A stretch of 40,470 nt of DNA from a virus. The notes beneath the pieces were generated by a model. The model worked only from the letters and a program-made list of their open reading frames with translations. It was not told the origin of the DNA and made no database searches. Within the stretch, counting starts at the first letter, position 1, and each line of letters begins with the position of its first letter. The stretch lies in UHGV virus genome UHGV-0078430, one strand, 5' to 3'. Positions 29,975 to 37,873 of this stretch are shown in pieces. The position numbers and the translations under genes were made by a program.

Positions 29975-30748
29975 TCAGGCGAGATAAGAATGAGGGTTGG
30001 GGAAGACGATTTCTTTGTAACAGCGGCAGTTCGGCAGCTCACCAGCGTGACCGGTCATACCGTCAAGCGTTGGAGGTCGGCCCCATTCGACAAACTTACC
30101 TTCCATCTCCCGATGAGAATGCCGGACGTCGCCATCTTCGGCTGTACGCCAGATATAACCATTCGAGCCGATTGACAGCGCACGCGCCTGATCCAGCGCG
30201 CCGGTTGCGCGTCCAAGCTCGGTACGGGCGATAAGGTTCGCTCGTGAGCGTGACACGTCACCGGACGCAGCTATCTCTTTCGCGAATGGCTCAGCGCGGC
30301 CACCAGTCACAACGGCCTCGATGGCTTTGTTCTGAATGTCATACACCCGATCGGCGGCCTCAAGAGGCAGCGATTTGATGTACTTAATTTGCTCGGCGAC
30401 GATGGATTTCATCACCTGGCCTACCGGGGCGCGGTCGACCATGTTGCGTAGTTCTGCGCTGATGTTCCGGCTGTGCTGACGCCACTGCTTTTCATTCTGG
30501 CGCGCTATGTCTGCGGTGAAGTTCTCAGCAACCTTCGTCGCCCAGGGGGTGATGATTTCGCTGTAGCGCTCCAGCGCATCCATTATTTCGGTGACGCTAT
30601 CGTTTGAACCATCGTAGCGCCCATTTACGATATCCCCGACCGCCCGCGCTATCTGCCGTAGGCTCGTTCGATATCGGATCTCCGCCTGGCGACTCTGGCG
30701 GTTTGTCGCCAAGTTCGCCGATGCCTGGCGGCGCTTCGTCTTCGGCAT
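29975..30748 (-). CDS. head morphogenesis protein (Mu gpF / SPP1 gp7 family)
   Basis: C-terminal HSHREMEGKFVEWGRPP...PNCRCY motif typical of Mu-F-like minor capsid proteins; 5' 152 nt overlap the portal ORF so the start is uncertain. Confidence 0.7.
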   Translation of the reverse strand: MPKTKRRQASANLATNRQSRQAEIRYRTSLRQIARAVGDIVNGRYDGSNDSVTEIMDALERYSEIITPWATKVAENFTADIARQNEKQWRQHSRNISAELRNMVDRAPVGQVMKSIVAEQIKYIKSLPLEAADRVYDIQNKAIEAVVTGGRAEPFAKEIAASGDVSRSRANLIARTELGRATGALDQARALSIGSNGYIWRTAEDGDVRHSHREMEGKFVEWGRPPTLDGMTGHAGELPNCRCYKEIVFPNPHSYLA

Positions 30749-32066
30749 TCTCGATATCCTCGTCGGTAATGGATGCCCCGATGCCGGTGACGTCAGAGTT
30801 TTCGCGCAGGTCGGTCATCGCCGCCTTACGCGTCATCAATCCGTCGCCCAGCGCGGTACTGATCGCGTTGGTGGTGTTTACGGCCACCGTTGATCGGTCA
30901 ACGTCTGACATTTGCCATAGCGGGTTAAACTCAAACGTGAAATCGTCCGGCAGCGGCTTTCCGAGTTCCGAGCGGTGCATAATGTCCAGTATCCGGCGCA
31001 TCGGCAGCCGTAAGCGGCGCTCCTGCAATGAGCTCACCCGGTCGTAATAGTTGGCGAGGTCTGCATCACCAGTATAGAAGCCTTTCGGGGATTGACCGAA
31101 CAGGCGTACCAGCGGGATACCAACGGCACCGCTGATCTGCTCAGCAAACTGCGAAAGAATGTCATCCAGACCGCTGAAGCTGTACTGGTGGGTTTCGAAC
31201 TTATCCCGCGAGTCCATGAGCGTCATGCCTTCATTGCTCTGGAACTGGCGGATCAGGTCGATGTTCTTCAGCAGCGCCTCGAACGCCGGGCCTCCAAGCG
31301 CGATAAGCTCGCGCAACTTCTCCACGCTATAGGTACGCAGATGCGCTTTATAGACCAGCTGCGCCGCGCCGACAGTGGCGCTATCGAACGCAGTAAGCCG
31401 ATCCCAGATACGCTCTACAACCGACATTCCCCATTCGTTTTCGGTCATCTTCTGCTGGAATGGCAGCGTGACGCCATCAAAGCGGATCAGGCGGCTGTGA
31501 TGGATGCGCCAGGCCGGAATGCCCGTTGCGGTGGTCACCACGTCGTAAAACTCAGGCTTGCCGAGGTCCGGCCCCATCTCTTTAATGCGGCGTGTCAGCA
31601 CCGGGTTAATCATCCAGCGGTCGAGCGGGAGAATGCCCTTAAACTTGCCCTCGCCAATGGTTTCGAGTCGCAGCGGGGTCATTGGTGCTTGCCCCTCGAT
31701 CATGATGAAGCCGACCGCGCCGCCGTAGAGACGCGACCATTTCAGCACGTCGTTCAGCGCATCCCAGATCTGCAACTCATCCAGTTGCGCTTCGAGGGTG
31801 CCACGGTCTTTGGCGTCAATCTCCGAAGTGATGCGAATGCCCTTTCGGGTCATATCGTCCGGGATAGCGTCGACCGCTTCACCGATAACCCACGAACCGC
31901 GATATGACCATTCCACCAGCATGCGGTTGCGGCTGGTGAAGTTCGCCCGGTAGGTCGATGCTGAATGCTGGTTAGGCGTCTGCATCCCAACGCGGGCGAC
32001 GAAGTTCTCGTAGCCGTCAGCGGTGGCCTGTGCCGTTCGCTGAGAGGATTGCTTGTTTCGTGCCAT
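30597..32066 (-). CDS. portal protein
   Basis: 489 aa, immediately downstream of large terminase; acidic C-terminus; resembles DUF1073-type portals from memory. Confidence 0.7.
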   Translation of the reverse strand: MARNKQSSQRTAQATADGYENFVARVGMQTPNQHSASTYRANFTSRNRMLVEWSYRGSWVIGEAVDAIPDDMTRKGIRITSEIDAKDRGTLEAQLDELQIWDALNDVLKWSRLYGGAVGFIMIEGQAPMTPLRLETIGEGKFKGILPLDRWMINPVLTRRIKEMGPDLGKPEFYDVVTTATGIPAWRIHHSRLIRFDGVTLPFQQKMTENEWGMSVVERIWDRLTAFDSATVGAAQLVYKAHLRTYSVEKLRELIALGGPAFEALLKNIDLIRQFQSNEGMTLMDSRDKFETHQYSFSGLDDILSQFAEQISGAVGIPLVRLFGQSPKGFYTGDADLANYYDRVSSLQERRLRLPMRRILDIMHRSELGKPLPDDFTFEFNPLWQMSDVDRSTVAVNTTNAISTALGDGLMTRKAAMTDLRENSDVTGIGASITDEDIENAEDEAPPGIGELGDKPPESPGGDPISNEPTADSAGGRGYRKWALRWFKR

Positions 32067-33694
32067 CAGGCCTGTCTCCCTAGCAGCTCCCAGATGTTCA
32101 GGGCTGAATTCATTGGCGCGTAGCTGATCATCACCGAGTCGGCGAGGTTCGGCGACTTGGTGCCATCAGGCTGTTTATCAACAACGATTTTCCCCACGCC
32201 ATTAATGGAGTAGGTCGGCTGCGACAGCTCAATGATGAGTTTGTCTTTGCTCGCCATGGCGCTGCTGATTGAGATGATTTCGTCCGGGTTGTAGGCCATG
32301 CCCTCAACCACGGCGCGATAGGTGTTCTGGAAAAGCTTGCGTAGCCACCACCAGCTCTGGGCCTTGGCGTTGGCGAAGAAGTCCTTGTTCAGGCGTGCGG
32401 CCTGTCCGTTGTCCCCGCGCACCGCTTCATCGTCCGGATCAAATACCGCGCCGCTACCACGAAACGGTGTGGCGAGTATTGACGGTCGGCGCGCTGCGTA
32501 ACGCAGTTCGTTGATGGCGCGCGCATCGCCGCGAACGCCAGCACCCAGGCCGTCCTCGTCGAAGCGAAACTCTTCGAGGTTGTCCTGTTCGCAAAAGCCG
32601 AAGACCTTCTCAACAGACTGGTAAATGTCGCTGCCAACGCCGGACCATTCACGCACGTTCTCCAGGAGGAAGCCGTGACGGGTCGAAAAGGCGTTTTTGT
32701 CCCGGCCTTCGTCGGCGACGTCCATCGCGCCCAGGCGTTTGCCCGTTGGCTGGATGCCCAGCTTAATATGAGCGTCGACGGCAGCCTGTACCCAGTCGGA
32801 CGGGATCAGGACGCCTTCCGCAGATGCGCTGTAGTTCAGGTCAAGTTCCTGCGCCACCACCACCGGATTGTCGATTTTCTCGCACTCCCTGCGATACCAC
32901 TCTTCATCCTTGCGAGGATCATCCCGCCAGTGGAATGTGAATACCGGTATCTTCCCGCCGTGACGCTTCTGCGCGAACGGGTTCGCCATGCCATTAACCG
33001 AGCTCAGGTCAATACGGCAACGGGTGGTTTGCGACAGCGCCGCATCAATCAACAGAGGACGCTGGAGGAATGCAGCTTCATCCACCAGGTAGAGCGTGGT
33101 ACGGTCACCACGTCCGATATTGTCGCCAGCCTCGCCTTTGATAACCGCGCCAGTATCTGGAAACTCAACGCGCATATACGGCGCATGCTTCTTCTCGTCC
33201 CACGAACCACGAAACTCGATGGGCAGTGTTTCCACGAACTTTCGCGCCTTCCAGAACAGCGCCTTCGGGTCACCGGTGCTGTCGACGTATTCCTCTTTAC
33301 GGGAGCCGAAACCGATAACCATTTCTTTGTTGAAGAGACAAAGCGAGCAGGCCAGCCCGATCGCGGTCCAACTGAGCCCCATTTCGCGGCTCTTTTCGGT
33401 GATGCCGTTCTCCAGTCGTTCGCGCCGCTCCATGATCCAGTGAATCCACTCTTCCTGTTTCGGGAACAGCAGAAAAGGGATGGTGACCGGCAGGCCATAA
33501 TCGATGTTACGCGGGTCAGTAGTCATACCCCAGTCGATGATGAACTGTGCCGGGTTGGTGCGATAAAACTGCTTTAGCGCTGGCAGCATTTCAGGGTTCT
33601 GGCGAATGCGCTGTAAGCGCTCCATCCGCCATTCAAAAACCATCTGGTAATCAGGGTTTCTGAAATCGAATTCAAACGGGAGAGGCATGATCAC
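32066..33694 (-). CDS. terminase large subunit
   Basis: 542 aa; Walker-B-like [11 protein letters not shown]; followed by portal; preceded by small-subunit-like gene. Confidence 0.8.
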
Positions 33695-34164
33695 CCCATC
33701 ATCTTGCGGTAAATCTCTGCGGCCTGATCTGCGGTGAGGTTGGTCGTCTCGGTCTTGATCGGGCCGCCATCCTTGCCAGTGCTCTCAACCTTCAGCTTAT
33801 TGGTGTAAGCGTCGCCAACCTCTTTCGCGGCCTGTTCGATAAGCTGCGCCGTCAGGGAGAAGTTTTTCATCCCCTCGGTTTTGGTTGCCATGCGGTCAAG
33901 CACGCGGAGGCGATAGGATTTGTTCGCTATCGGAATGTCGCTGGTTTCGGTCAGGAACCGTTCGCGCGTCGCGTGGAACATCTCGATCCACTTTTTGGCG
34001 AGCGTCTTACCGCTGGCCTTCGTGGGGTCGTGAGATTCAGCCTGCTGGCGGGTAATCTTGATCCCGAATTCTTTTTGGACAGCCTCGACCACCTGCGATG
34101 GCGTGTCATAGCACGCAAGCGACTGAATGATGAAGGCTTTCACATCAGGTTTTAATGCAGCCAT
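33691..34164 (-). CDS. terminase small subunit (putative)
   Basis: 157 aa, overlaps start of large terminase (ATGA-type coupling). Confidence 0.55.
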
Positions 34165-34195
34165 AAATCACCATTCGTCTTATACAGTCCAGTAT

Positions 34196-34852
34196 TTAAG
34201 CCAGTCGCAGCATGCACGTCCCGCACGCTCTGGCAATATCGAGATGAGCAACCTCCGCTGGCTGATTCGCCGCATCAATCATTTCCTGCACGTCCCGGCT
34301 TGCACCGTAACGGCGAACCACGCCCACAAACTCTTCCACGTCATGGCCGCGCAGCTTCAGCTTTGGCTGCCCTTCCTGCGTGAACTTCGGCGCGCCAAAT
34401 TCATCTGTCGCCTGGCAGATGTGATAAAGCTCGTGCTCTATCAGCGCACAGAATTCCAGATCGGAACATTGCGAGCAGTAATCAGCGGCCAGCGTGATGA
34501 TGAACTGCGGCACCCTGCCGAACCATTCATACATCTGCTGCTCCATCCGCGCTTTCTGCCAGCCTCCAGCCCGCATTGCCACTTCTTCCGCCTGCCCCAG
34601 CACGGAACGCCCTTTCTTCTCGAAAGCGTTAGACGCCCAGAGAAAGCACAGATCCGCTTCAAGCAAATGCTGGTGGTCATGGTTGTAGAGGTCACCCTCA
34701 TCGCTCAGGATGTGCTGATTCAGCCACTCGCCAACGTCATTAGCGGGCATAATGCTGATGTACGGCTTCGGGTCAGGTGGCATCGTAAAATGCGCTGGTG
34801 GGTGTGGTCTGTTCATGAATAATTCCAGTGCTCCATTATCGAAGCCCCTCAA
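34196..34852 (-). CDS. HExxH-motif protein (putative metallopeptidase-like)
   Basis: 218-aa ORF with HELYH motif and multiple Cys; between Rha and terminase genes. Confidence 0.45.
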   Translation of the reverse strand: MRGFDNGALELFMNRPHPPAHFTMPPDPKPYISIMPANDVGEWLNQHILSDEGDLYNHDHQHLLEADLCFLWASNAFEKKGRSVLGQAEEVAMRAGGWQKARMEQQMYEWFGRVPQFIITLAADYCSQCSDLEFCALIEHELYHICQATDEFGAPKFTQEGQPKLKLRGHDVEEFVGVVRRYGASRDVQEMIDAANQPAEVAHLDIARACGTCMLRLA

Positions 34853-34876
34853 TGAAGGGCTTCTGTAATGCCGCGA

Positions 34877-35431
34877 TCAGCCAATAAGTAATTCCGGCTG
34901 CGTTACCTGCATGATGTGCTCATGTTCGAGCTCCAGGACGCGCTTCTCTTTCTTCCGCTCGTTCATCAAACGGCTTCCGATCGTGCCTTTCAGCTTTGAG
35001 CGCGTTTCTTTGATGGCGTAGCGATGCTGCAATTCTTCACCCATCGCCATGCGCCGGTTTAGCTGCTCGGCCATCCAGTTGAAGGCATTGATGTAACACT
35101 CCTTCACTGCGGCAGCTGTTTTGCCAGTGAATCCCATCACTAGCATCATGCATCCGTCGCGGGTGATGTTATACATAGGCTGAACATCGCCATTTTTATC
35201 AATGAAATCAATGGGCGCAAAATTGCGCTGGGTGAAGTCATCGGAGCATTTCAGGTTACGTATGGCACGCAAAACGTCTTTGTGTCGCTTGCCAAAGTAA
35301 TCCGCCACCTTGAGTGATGTGGTGATTATCTTGTTGTCGAGGGTCGTGACCATTTCGCGGAAGTCGAAGGCCGGAATAACTGACGGATTATTCATAGCGT
35401 CTTTACCTTTTAGAAAGTGAGCCTGTCTCAC
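34877..35431 (-). CDS. phage regulatory protein Rha
   Basis: N-terminal TSLKVADYFGKRHKDVLRAIRNL matches Rha-family signature; start probably internal Met (MNNPS). Confidence 0.75.
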   Translation of the reverse strand: MRQAHFLKGKDAMNNPSVIPAFDFREMVTTLDNKIITTSLKVADYFGKRHKDVLRAIRNLKCSDDFTQRNFAPIDFIDKNGDVQPMYNITRDGCMMLVMGFTGKTAAAVKECYINAFNWMAEQLNRRMAMGEELQHRYAIKETRSKLKGTIGSRLMNERKKEKRVLELEHEHIMQVTQPELLIG

Positions 35432-35593: not shown

Positions 35594-36061
35594 TTATTTC
35601 AGGCATTGCGTCCTGATGTATTCCTGCAGGTAGTTAACCTGCGCGGTTATCCTGTCGATTCCACTTCGGAGACGGTAATAATTGAGTTCAGCATCTGCTG
35701 TAAGTCTTGGGCTTTCTCCATCGCCCATGCTGCTGGCTCCGGTCGTTGACTTTGCACAGGTGGCGGCGACTTGCAGCCGCTTACGGCCAGCAATGACATC
35801 GCTATGCAGACGCTCAATGGTTTCTTTCGCATCAGCCAGTTCTCCGGTGTATTTGGCATCCAGTGCAGCGACATCACGCTGGCGGGTCTGCATGTCTTTA
35901 ATGGTGGCGGTCGCCAGGAGGAGTTTCTCAGTGGCCTTATCGCGCTGGTCTCTGTAAGTGATGGCGTTGTCGCGGTAGTGGTTCACGAAGAAAGCCAGTG
36001 CGCCGATTAACGCCAGCACCAGCAACTGCAGCCAGTAACGCTTAACCAGTGCGCTAATCAT
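35594..36061 (-). CDS. i-spanin (Rz-like)
   Basis: 155 aa, N-terminal TM helix, coiled-coil periplasmic domain; downstream of endolysin; contains embedded lipoprotein ORF. Confidence 0.75.
35647..35832 (-). CDS. o-spanin (Rz1-like lipoprotein) embedded in Rz
   Basis: 61-aa product [20 protein letters not shown]... with lipobox and Pro-rich mature part, entirely within the Rz gene in another frame. Confidence 0.7.
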
Positions 36062-36534
36062 GACAGGAACAGAGCTCGCTCTGCCTCCCGCCGACGTGTC
36101 AGCCCATTCAGCACCTTCCCACCAGCTTTATTCCAGCGCAGGAACTCATCGGCTGCACCAGCGTAATCTCCGGCGTTGAGTTTTCGCAGGAGAGTCGATG
36201 TCGACAATGACCGCGCACCGAGGTTATACGTGAACGACACCAGGGCATCGAACTGGCCTTGTGTCAGCTTCACCCTGACAACTTTCAGCACGTCATTCTC
36301 ATAACCAACAAGCCCTGTTTTCAGAAGCCTGTCAGCGGTTTGCTGGTCGATAGTCATACCGCGCTTTACTGGCTTTCCGTCAACCGGATGGGTCCAGCCA
36401 TAGCCGATGGTCCACGGCGCATCTCCCGTTCCGGGGTCGGGGTAAGCAGTCAGCCGACAACCTTCAAATTTTTTTATCAGAGCAATTCCGTCAGGACTGG
36501 TTTGCATCGTCAACTCCCGCCTTTTTTGCTGCAA
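36058..36534 (-). CDS. endolysin (GH24 lysozyme-like)
   Basis: [20 protein letters not shown]...WTIGYGWT motif typical of T4-lysozyme-like muramidases; true start may be internal Met (MQTSPDG). Confidence 0.85.
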
Positions 36535-36814
36535 GTTTTTTAATCAGATTGCCGATCGAATCGGTGCCGATGTATCCAATAAAGACGCTGGCTATGTAGG
36601 CGAGGTTGCTGCTCAGGCCGATAAAGTCCAGAAGGTCACGAACGAACCAGGCAATCATCGCGCACATCAGCGCATCAATTAGCGTTTTTGTTACCGCGCC
36701 GCCGTTATAGCGACCACGCAGATACGCCATGATAAAAGCCAGCATTGCACCAATACCCTGCTCCTTGGCGGCAAGTAGCGCAGCGATGAAATCTTGTTTG
36801 TATGGCATTTTCAT
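36491..36814 (-). CDS. class I holin (lambda S-like) with dual-start motif
   Basis: 107-aa product from MKM start, closely matches my recollection of lambda S ([27 protein letters not shown]...[21 protein letters not shown]); ORF trimmed from 36934. Confidence 0.85.
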
Positions 36815-36922
36815 AGGCCTCACCTCCGATTTTCCGGATGGTGCTGTGTGTGTTTGTAGGGGAAAGGCCGTCAGACTCTGATTGCTACATGGCATCTGAA
36901 AATGATATCTGCGGCCTGCAAT

Positions 36923-36946
36923 AAAAAAGCCCACGGCGCGGTGGGC
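36923..36946 (-). terminator. Rho-independent terminator
   Basis: minus strand gcccac-cgcgcc-gtgggc followed by U6. Confidence 0.45.
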
Positions 36947-36996
36947 AATAGAGGGTAGTGCGTTGAGCTTTTGCTCTTATGGTCCTGGTAGGTATT

Positions 36997-37071
36997 TGGC
37001 GGGACAGGAAGGATTCGAACCTTCGACCAATCGGTTAACAGCCGATCTCACAACCTCTGTGCTTCTGACCC
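36997..37071 (-). tRNA. tRNA-Asn-like (anticodon GUU), possibly phage-borne or degenerate
   Basis: manual cloverleaf: acceptor GGGTCAG/CTGTCCC (one T-T mismatch), D-arm with GG, anticodon stem ATCGG/CCGAT with loop CTGTTAA, T-arm GAAGG-TTCGAAT-CCTTC, encoded CCA. Confidence 0.45.
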
Positions 37072-37078
37072 TGAATGC

Positions 37079-37105
37079 AAAAAGCCCCTGCATTTCTGCA
37101 AGGGC
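37079..37105 (-). terminator. tR'-like terminator downstream of Q-position gene
   Basis: minus strand gcccttgca-gaaa-tgcaggggc followed by U5. Confidence 0.45.
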
Positions 37106-37189
37106 TTAAATGTGGTTCACACCGCTCCGCGCAAGGCATCTCCGCTGGTGGGTAAGCTCTTTCGCCTTTGACGTCCGAGCATATCTGAA

Positions 37190-37873
37190 TTATGCAGTTT
37201 CAAAACTCGTTTTCAAGTCTTTTTCGCAAGTTTTTGCATTTTCGAAGCCAAATTCATCTTTTAACGTGAAGAAGACAGCAGAATTAAACAACTCAATACA
37301 CCAGCGCACGCGGTCAATACATTGCTTTTCGGTCAGAAACGGCGCGTAGTAATATTGCATCCACCGTGCCATGTCATTAATGGTTTTCCTCCAGGTGTAA
37401 TAGTCCTTCCCTATCTCATACACGGGATTCCCCGGCTTGAAGGACTTCAGGATGATAGCCTCCATGAATGCAGCTTCCTCTTGATCCCCGGCGTTGCCGA
37501 TCAGGTCAGAAAGTGATTTCTTCGGCCAGATGATGGCTTTAGCCTGCTCAAACAACGCATCTCCGGTATAGCCAATTTTACGCAGACCAGACAGTACGGT
37601 AGCGATCCGCTCCTGCTGTTCGCCAGTCCAGCCGGTCAATATCATTGACCACATACCACCGCCACCTGAAAGGTGTTCTATTCCGCTGCCTCCATACATG
37701 CCGCCCCAGTGGTTCAGCAACGAACGAACCCAACGGCTTTGCGATGGTGTCAGTCGGCGGTATTTCCCCAGGTAAGATCTGCGTGGTGCTGCTGCCAGCG
37801 TCACCCAGGCGTTTTGCGGGTTGGTACGCTCAACAGACGCTTTCTGGTAATTGTTAATATCGGTGCGTGTCAT
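37190..37873 (-). CDS. putative late-gene regulator (antiterminator Q position)
   Basis: 227-aa product from ATG overlapping rusA stop (ATGA); located between rusA and tR'-like terminator/lysis genes as Q is in lambdoid phages; family not recognised by sequence. Confidence 0.45.
   Translation of the reverse strand: MTRTDINNYQKASVERTNPQNAWVTLAAAPRRSYLGKYRRLTPSQSRWVRSLLNHWGGMYGGSGIEHLSGGGGMWSMILTGWTGEQQERIATVLSGLRKIGYTGDALFEQAKAIIWPKKSLSDLIGNAGDQEEAAFMEAIILKSFKPGNPVYEIGKDYYTWRKTINDMARWMQYYYAPFLTEKQCIDRVRWCIELFNSAVFFTLKDEFGFENAKTCEKDLKTSFETA

Follow-up and report, generated by a model that had tools for sequence, protein, structure and literature searches.

Here, we show that a gene of the "putative phage metallopeptidase" family PF18894 is inherited as a unit with the adjacent gene for a DUF2280 protein. 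The gene was analyzed in UHGV virus genome UHGV-0078430, a stretch of 40,470 nucleotides (hereafter, the window) that is 100% identical to Citrobacter phage Omnitron (CP115737.1, a record without annotation). We infer that the DUF2280 protein is a modular small terminase (TerS). The PF18894 protein is probably a metal-dependent, zincin-like enzyme, and we consider it about an even call whether this enzyme is made late and takes part in the initiation of packaging by DUF2280-type TerS, or works alongside it. The initial annotation described an open reading frame (ORF) at 34196-34852 with a single HELYH motif between a gene for a Rha-family regulator and the terminase genes, and this description holds, with the DUF2280 gene and then the gene for the large terminase (TerL) lying downstream. 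The three genes on which the argument rests are the following.

34196..34816, minus strand: coding sequence of the PF18894 "putative phage metallopeptidase," 206 amino acids, ATG at 34816, stop codon TAA at 34196-34198.
33691..34164, minus strand: DUF2280 protein, 157 amino acids, putative TerS, the conserved partner of the metallopeptidase gene.
32066..33694, minus strand: TerL, 542 amino acids, overlapping the DUF2280 stop by 4 nt.

Synteny, co-occurrence and co-divergence all bear on the inheritance of the PF18894 gene; the taxonomic breadth of the comparison rests on IMG/VR loci together with phage records. A DUF2280 gene lies downstream of it in 157 of the 164 loci. At close loci, the DUF2280 gene follows after ∼31 nt in 84 of 84 cases, and at the distant IMG/VR loci it lies downstream in 73 of 80, i.e., within 50 nt at 59 loci and behind inserted genes at 14. 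Most of the inserted genes encode homing endonucleases or are metabolic "morons"; they include HNH_3+NUMOD4 (L108, L136 and L160), peptide deformylase (L121/L122) and a PAPS-reductase-like gene (L117). In Pseudomonas JBD44, Pectobacterium ZF40 and Acinetobacter Acba_13, the PF18894 gene is followed by a gene for a DUF2280 protein of ∼155 amino acids and then by TerL, and these TerLs belong to different Pfam families. Among cultured phages, the counts of PF18894 and DUF2280 are equal genus by genus (Acinetobacter, 62/62; Pseudomonas, 44/44; Vibrio, 8/8; Burkholderia, 7/7). Over 154 loci, pairwise identities of the PF18894 protein correlate with those of DUF2280 with a rho of 0.75 and with those of TerL with a rho of 0.22. 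Among pairs with at least 90% identity in the PF18894 protein, 46% have TerLs that are less than 35% identical, and DUF2280 identity is never below 56%. With clusters defined at ≥35% identity, the TerLs fall into 18 clusters and the PF18894 and DUF2280 proteins into one cluster each; single-linkage clustering at E < 1e-5 lumped almost all TerLs together and carried no information, and we rely on the identity-based clusters and the pairwise correlations. On the other side of the PF18894 gene, the upstream neighbors fall into 85 clusters across the loci, and Rha is not conserved there. Because of the difference between the two correlations, the 18 TerL clusters and the 85 upstream clusters, we conclude that the unit of inheritance is the PF18894 gene plus the DUF2280 gene. 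A fixed two-gene unit with TerS argues for a packaging-linked role and against a role in anti-defence. The PF18894 gene behaves like part of a conserved core, linked to the small terminase, and not as a patchy accessory; the possibility that it is an unrelated accessory gene, raised in the initial annotation, does not fit this pattern.

The DUF2280 gene is positioned directly upstream of the TerL gene, and the last 35 amino acids of its product track the TerL type: when the N-terminal domains of two DUF2280 proteins are 85 to 100% identical, the tails are 97% identical if the TerL is the same and 23% identical if it is different. The structural model of the DUF2280 protein (predicted local distance difference test [pLDDT] score, 71.6) has three short helices followed by three long ones; its top Foldseek matches are the small terminases of G20c and P74-26, at values that are not significant, and the PDB, searched with a DUF2280 profile, returned chance matches only. 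Escherichia phage vB_EcoM-606R2 provides a natural experiment. The TerL annotated in this phage and the Omnitron TerL are 96% identical, and the 606R2 TerS is a Terminase_2 protein that has in common with the Omnitron DUF2280 protein only the C-terminal 39 amino acids, at 64% identity (33691-33810; locus L170, 2048-2620). In 606R2, the TerS gene comes directly after Rz with no metallopeptidase gene between them. Because 606R2, with its different TerS, lacks the PF18894 gene while its TerL is 96% identical, we conclude that the PF18894 gene travels with the DNA-recognition part of DUF2280-type TerS and not with the TerL or capsid genes. The Omnitron TerL of 542 amino acids has no Pfam terminase match at E values up to 0.001 and belongs to a lineage that is thinly covered by Pfam.

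The Omnitron protein is a typical member of PF18894, a family that is catalogued and whose function is experimentally uncharacterized. It matches the PF18894 PhageMetallopep profile at 147.1 bits (cut-off, 23.7; E = 4e-43) over profile positions 2-134 of 134, and near-identical proteins already carry the name "putative metallopeptidase" in NCBI and UniRef. The family comprises 3468 clusters at 90% identity and 903 at 50% identity, and the gene is present in 144 cultured phage genomes, chiefly from phages of Acinetobacter, Pseudomonas, Klebsiella, Vibrio and Burkholderia. The protein of 206 amino acids has no match in NCBIfam. Conservation was assessed in an alignment of 76 representatives that are 33 to 53% identical to the Omnitron protein, all of which match the PF18894 profile. 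Across these homologs, H128, E129, H132, H158, G171, C198 and G199 are invariant; H48, H50, L51, W60, W86, T108, L130, D159, E161 and F163 are at least 90% conserved, with H48, H50, D159 and E161 reaching at least 95%. The conserved residues concentrate in four short motifs.

34421..34435, minus strand: HELYH (H128, E129, L130, Y131, H132), proposed to bind zinc and to carry out catalysis; predicted helix 119-131 ends in this motif, and the two His and the Glu are invariant.
34328..34348, minus strand: GHDVEEF, residues 157-163, with invariant H158 as candidate third zinc ligand and with D159, E161 and F163 each ≥92% conserved.
34664..34678, minus strand: DHQHL, residues 47-51, a possible second metal site or substrate site; H48 97%, H50 95% and L51 96% conserved.
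34214..34225, minus strand: C-terminal CGTC, possible structural zinc ligands or a "cysteine switch"-like autoinhibitory tail; C198 and G199 invariant, C201 88% conserved.

The overall pattern is HExxH-x25-H(D)xE, with DHxH in the N-terminal and CGxC in the C-terminal part, and it is compatible with a zincin site of three His that is accompanied, possibly, by another metal site or by a Cys tail with a regulatory function. The protein is the sole carrier of an HExxH motif among the 30 likely genes in the window, and the chance expectation, given its size and composition, is ∼0.0016 such motifs per protein. The initial annotation also called the protein Cys-rich. In numbers this is correct, since 7 of its 206 residues (3.4%) are Cys compared with 0.68% across the other genes of the window; however, only C198 (100%), C201 (88%) and C123 (70%) are conserved among the homologs, while C114 and C117 are each found in ∼20% and C57 and C134 in 3%, and the richness in Cys is therefore mostly a lineage trait. 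In 36 of 150 family representatives (e.g., P0130, P0133, P0137, P0147, P0164, P0176 and P0244), an N-terminal extension of 55 to 118 amino acids precedes the conserved part. The extensions share a Y[ST]xx[DE]K...G...A...V....L..W pattern and give weak matches to HTH_Tnp_1 (E = 0.005-0.012), BrkDBD and MerR; they contain no significant Pfam domain. As judged from these patterns, the extension is probably a helix-turn-helix (HTH) fusion, and it hints that these proteins work in proximity to DNA. One member with such an extension is still followed by DUF2280 and a Terminase_3 TerL. The Omnitron protein itself lacks the extension.

AlphaFold2, supplied with the 76-sequence alignment, gave a confident model of the Omnitron protein (pLDDT, 93.8; predicted template modeling score, 0.86). 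Strands within residues 56-78 form a small sheet, followed by helix 85-99, strand 105-110 and helix 119-131, which ends in the HExxH motif, and pLDDT exceeds 95 in these elements. The order of a strand followed by the HExxH helix is the local arrangement found in zincins. Confidence falls at the C-terminal CGTC, to a pLDDT of 84 and then 54. In a Foldseek comparison with viral models, the significant matches were other PF18894 proteins only, with SprT-like and "zincin" proteins at E values of 0.2 to 1.3. The SprT-like Pfam model (PF10263) is touched by 4 of the 76 members, with a best E value of 0.012, and DUF5700 by 2 of the 76; the Omnitron protein has no match to PF10263 at E values up to 10. 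Altogether, a zincin-like active site is well supported by residue conservation, and a zincin fold is plausible as judged from the model. The proposal in the initial annotation that the protein is zinc metallopeptidase-like thus stands as far as the PF18894 match and the invariant H128, E129, H132 and H158 go; confirmation of a metalloprotease fold did not follow.

The junction between the two genes of the cassette contains a co-varying, RNA-like element around the start site of the TerS gene, which in Omnitron consists of the following parts.

34165..34195, minus strand: 31-nt junction from the metallopeptidase gene to the DUF2280 gene, with both direct repeats and the Shine-Dalgarno sequence.
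34187-34193, minus strand: direct repeat 1 (DR1), ACTGGAC.
34177-34183, minus strand: direct repeat 2 (DR2), ATAAGAC, degenerate in Omnitron.
34168-34172, minus strand: Shine-Dalgarno sequence GGTGA of the DUF2280 gene, after DR1 and DR2.
34074..34080, minus strand: inverted copy of the junction repeats (IR), GTCCAAA, inside the DUF2280 gene at nt 85-91, codons 29-31.

Across loci, two direct repeats of 7 to 10 nt with a period of 10 nt (11 nt in Pseudomonas) begin 1 to 5 nt past the metallopeptidase stop codon. The sequence of the repeats differs by lineage, and the inverted copy at nt 83-91 (codons 28-31) of the DUF2280 gene changes along with it (loci including L010-L083, L109, L156 and L160); the co-varying changes in IR include a synonymous switch of a Val codon from GTC to GTA and the replacement of Gln by His. 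The reverse complement of the IR 7-mer is present twice upstream, at a spacing of 9 to 12 nt, in 25 of 87 distinct loci compared with 0.2 expected. In an alignment of 31 sequences, DR1:IR is 78.6% paired and DR2:IR 83.5% paired versus 31 to 50% when the partner is slid, and for each of the two pairings 24 to 25 cells are changed on both sides, a value reached in 0 of 500 shuffles. RNAalifold recovers DR1:IR unprompted. The Omnitron RNA of 135 nt (34065-34199) has a predicted folding energy of −42.2 kcal/mol (z = −3.1) with the closing stem UGGAC:GUCCA, and in the predicted fold the Shine-Dalgarno sequence GGUGA is paired to codons 11-14 of the DUF2280 gene. The Shine-Dalgarno helix is 84.7% paired across the alignment with one U-A/C-G swap, a figure that is inflated by the structure having been drawn from an aligned sequence. 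No Rfam family matches the junction element. At loci with inserted genes (L156 and L160), the element stays with the DUF2280 gene, and we therefore assign it to terS. As judged from pairing and covariation, it could be a translational-coupling RNA switch, or it could comprise the TerS-binding (pac) boxes of a packaging site.

These findings lead us to suggest the following working model. The PF18894 protein would be a soluble, acidic protein of ∼23 kDa and a metal-binding hydrolase of the zincin type, most likely a peptidase, with H128, H132 and H158 as predicted metal ligands and E129 as predicted general base. It would be made late, from a transcript shared with the lysis and packaging genes, alongside TerS, and its gene forms a conserved two-gene cassette with the DNA-recognition (N-terminal) part of DUF2280-type TerS. 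We suggest a role in, or in concert with, the initiation of packaging by this type of TerS. The protein may process or regulate a partner, either TerS or some other protein that occupies the packaging site, or it may strip proteins from that site or from the DNA to be packaged; host defences would probably not be its target. In the same model, translation of TerS would be repressed by the RNA fold, the closing stem of which begins immediately behind the stop codon of the metallopeptidase gene. When a ribosome terminates on the upstream gene, it would cover DR1, IR would switch to DR2, and the TerS ribosome-binding site would be freed; in this way, synthesis of TerS would depend on translation of the gene before it. 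In its most specific form, the model would make the PF18894 protein an unrecognized, zinc protease-like packaging accessory that DUF2280-type TerS needs for initiation and that is kept in a fixed ratio to TerS by the RNA switch; this form is possible but, in our view, doubtful.

Several observations weigh against this model. The PF18894 gene occurs without DUF2280 at 7 of the 80 distant loci; where there is room downstream at such loci, it still lies beside another small terminase-like gene (DUF5681 or GGKRxGAGRK-type) and TerL. Conversely, 181 phages of Salinibacter ruber have DUF2280, at 33% identity, and lack the PF18894 gene, and therefore this type of TerS can work without it. In one of them, Salinibacter phage 4_20 (OR896284.1; locus L084, 2932-3980), the upstream gene encodes a hydrophobic protein of 172 amino acids with no Pfam match. 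Co-divergence of the PF18894 and DUF2280 proteins could arise from tight linkage alone. Since the junction element stays with the DUF2280 gene at insertions, any coupling would be to the upstream ORF and not specifically to the PF18894 protein. Structure prediction, proposed in the initial annotation as a check for a metalloprotease fold, gave a confident model with no significant solved relative: in Foldseek against the PDB, the best E value was 0.7, with selecase, Ste24, HtpX and Dcp scattered in the noise. PDB searches with the single sequence and with the 76-sequence profile gave no relevant match, and hhalign against E. coli SprT/YggI gave a probability of 4% over 37 columns that cover the strand and the HExxH helix only. 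A relation to known proteases at the level of the fold is thus not demonstrated. Finally, we found no functional or experimental study of PF18894 or DUF2280 in the literature that we searched, which holds passing annotations only. Taking both sides together, we see the case for a function tied to packaging as evenly balanced.

An alternative raised in the initial annotation is that the protein serves in host takeover or anti-defence, i.e., as a protease that cleaves a host protein with an immunity or housekeeping function. Countering defences with a protease is plausible, and the slot just upstream of the terminase genes takes mobile or accessory genes in some relatives, such as the homing HNH, peptide deformylase and PAPS reductase genes described above. 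The gene is, however, in a late position after the lysis genes; it is not patchy but belongs to one family present in essentially every proteobacterial phage with DUF2280; it co-diverges with TerS; it is gone in 606R2, where the TerS type changed and TerL is almost the same; and the protein matches no PADLOC model at E values up to 0.01, including those of known defence and abortive-infection proteases, e.g., Lit. We therefore regard this alternative as unlikely. A second alternative is that the protein is not a peptidase but a metal-dependent nucleic-acid enzyme or a DNA-binding terminase accessory, a positional analog of the HNH endonuclease of HK97-like phages that would help to cut or recognize the packaging site. 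An HNH endonuclease occupies the same slot elsewhere, e.g., in phi1026b; the weak HTH matches of the N-terminal extensions and the linkage to the DNA-recognition domain of TerS point the same way, and zincin-like folds can be nucleases, as in YbeY. Yet HExxH with an invariant Glu is a peptidase signature, the protein resembles no nuclease family, it is acidic with an isoelectric point of 5.2, and the Omnitron member has no HTH extension, so that this alternative also appears improbable.

The gene might instead have a function unrelated to packaging and be kept beside DUF2280 by tight linkage and by a need of TerS for a translated upstream ORF. The behavior of the junction element at insertions, the Salinibacter phages and the correlated divergence that linkage alone can give speak for this explanation. 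It does not account for the position of the breakpoints, which fall inside the TerS gene before the TerL-matching tail and just upstream of the PF18894 gene but almost never between the two genes, a pattern that linkage over 31 nt does not explain, and it leaves the near 1:1 co-occurrence across phages of Gamma-, Beta- and Alphaproteobacteria unexplained; we give it a low probability. Proximity to Rha in Omnitron raises the idea of a repressor-cleaving protease that acts with Rha in the lysis-lysogeny decision, given the pairing of ImmA/IrrE enzymes, which are proteases of the HExxH kind, with regulators (PMC6868357). With Peptidase_M78 matched by 0 of the 76 members, Rha absent as a conserved neighbor among the 85 upstream clusters and the gene located among late genes, this idea is very unlikely. 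As for a transposase, the name is attached to the protein through PHROG 513, which it matches at E = 9e-97 and which is labeled "transposase," and through the same label in many GenBank records and in several phage records. There is no transposase catalytic domain, and we reject this reading on domain content, leaving it a negligible probability; the label probably stems from the weakly HTH_Tnp_1-like N-terminal extension of some members. Among all these explanations, an enzyme linked to packaging initiation by DUF2280-type TerS is the one that we prefer.

The placement of the gene in the window is consistent with late expression. Upstream and downstream of the cassette, the window contains the following features.

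34817..34852, minus strand: 12 extra codons of the longest ORF, from its TTG start, judged untranslated; missing from homologs, with the TTG in the hairpin at 34841-34863.
34877..35431, minus strand: Rha-family regulator (PF09669), the upstream neighbor in Omnitron only and not a conserved partner.
35594-36061, minus strand: Rz, late string.
36058-36534, minus strand: lysozyme, late string.
36491-36934, minus strand: holin, late string.
30597-32066, minus strand: portal, downstream of TerL.

The order on this strand is holin, lysozyme, Rz, Rha, PF18894 gene, DUF2280, TerL and portal, and the PF18894 gene is part of this late lysis-packaging string; no promoter-like site lies directly upstream of it in the Omnitron window. 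The longest ORF (34196-34852, minus strand) would encode 218 amino acids from a TTG start. Its first 12 residues have no counterpart in the homologs, which comprise 206 to 216 amino acids and begin with M..RPxPP. Because these residues are absent from the homologs and the TTG lies inside a hairpin, we chose the ATG at 34816 as the probable start, which gives a protein of 206 amino acids and 23.4 kDa in which the HELYH motif occupies residues 128-132. The hairpin has a 7-bp stem (GAAGCCC-N9-GGGCTTC, 34841-34863) without a T-run and separates the stop codon of Rha from the start of the metallopeptidase gene. Farther upstream, an ORF of 247 amino acids without a Pfam match shares its end with a promoter-like site (TTGAAA-16-CATAAT, 37216-37189); this site is followed by a strong terminator-like hairpin (37107-37082), tRNA-Asn (36997-37071), a second terminator-like hairpin (36946-36929) and then holin; this layout (36929-37216, minus strand) resembles a late promoter with an antitermination region. 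An ORF of 231 amino acids on the plus strand (34127-34822) is a mirror of the metallopeptidase gene; nothing supports its status as a gene, and it was rejected. Burkholderia phage phi1026b had been suspected to have a PF18894 gene by its cos site and has the HNH endonuclease there instead.

The Omnitron protein itself is an ordinary member of its family, and what may be new is the cassette of PF18894 with a modular TerS and the junction element. The members of PF18894 number in the thousands, in temperate phages that infect Enterobacterales, Pseudomonas, Acinetobacter, Vibrio and Burkholderia, and the family behaves as the fixed partner of one type of TerS. In the literature that we searched, no protease-like accessory factor of a terminase is described. 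If the link is functional, it would add a new component to the textbook packaging machine and would bear on the choice of pac sites and on generalized transduction in clinically important hosts. The analysis also corrects a widespread annotation as transposase, which is probably wrong, and suggests an assignment of DUF2280 as a modular small terminase.

The junction element and the protein can each be compared with known systems. Long-range RNA pairing for translational coupling is classical in RNA phages and in ribosomal-protein operons, and repeated TerS-binding boxes are found at pac and cos sites, e.g., pacL/pacR of SPP1 and the R sites of lambda cosB. The junction element likewise has two direct repeats, one helical turn apart, with a co-varying inverted copy ∼95 nt downstream, and its predicted fold hides the TerS ribosome-binding site; it differs in having no match in Rfam. 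With regard to the protein, PF18894 members are reminiscent of SprT, Spartan and Wss1 in being small, single-domain HExxH proteins with a downstream His (candidate H158) as third ligand and in being tied genetically to a DNA-handling machine, here the terminase, and the strand and HExxH helix align locally with E. coli SprT/YggI. They differ from these proteases by the lack of a significant sequence or structure match, by the HExxH-x25-H spacing and by the additional conserved DHxH and CGTC motifs. ImmA/IrrE proteins (COG2856, Peptidase_M78) are also HExxH proteins of mobile elements encoded beside a regulator, which in Omnitron is Rha; by contrast, PF18894 has no M78 match, its conserved neighbor is TerS rather than an Xre- or Rha-type regulator, and it is a late gene. 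The closest positional parallel is the gp74-type HNH endonuclease of HK97-like cos phages, which is located in the same slot immediately upstream of TerS and is likewise a small, metal-dependent accessory encoded with the terminase, metal use being a prediction for PF18894; however, the PF18894 protein is unrelated to it in fold and motif and has no nuclease signature, and its partner is a specific family of TerS.

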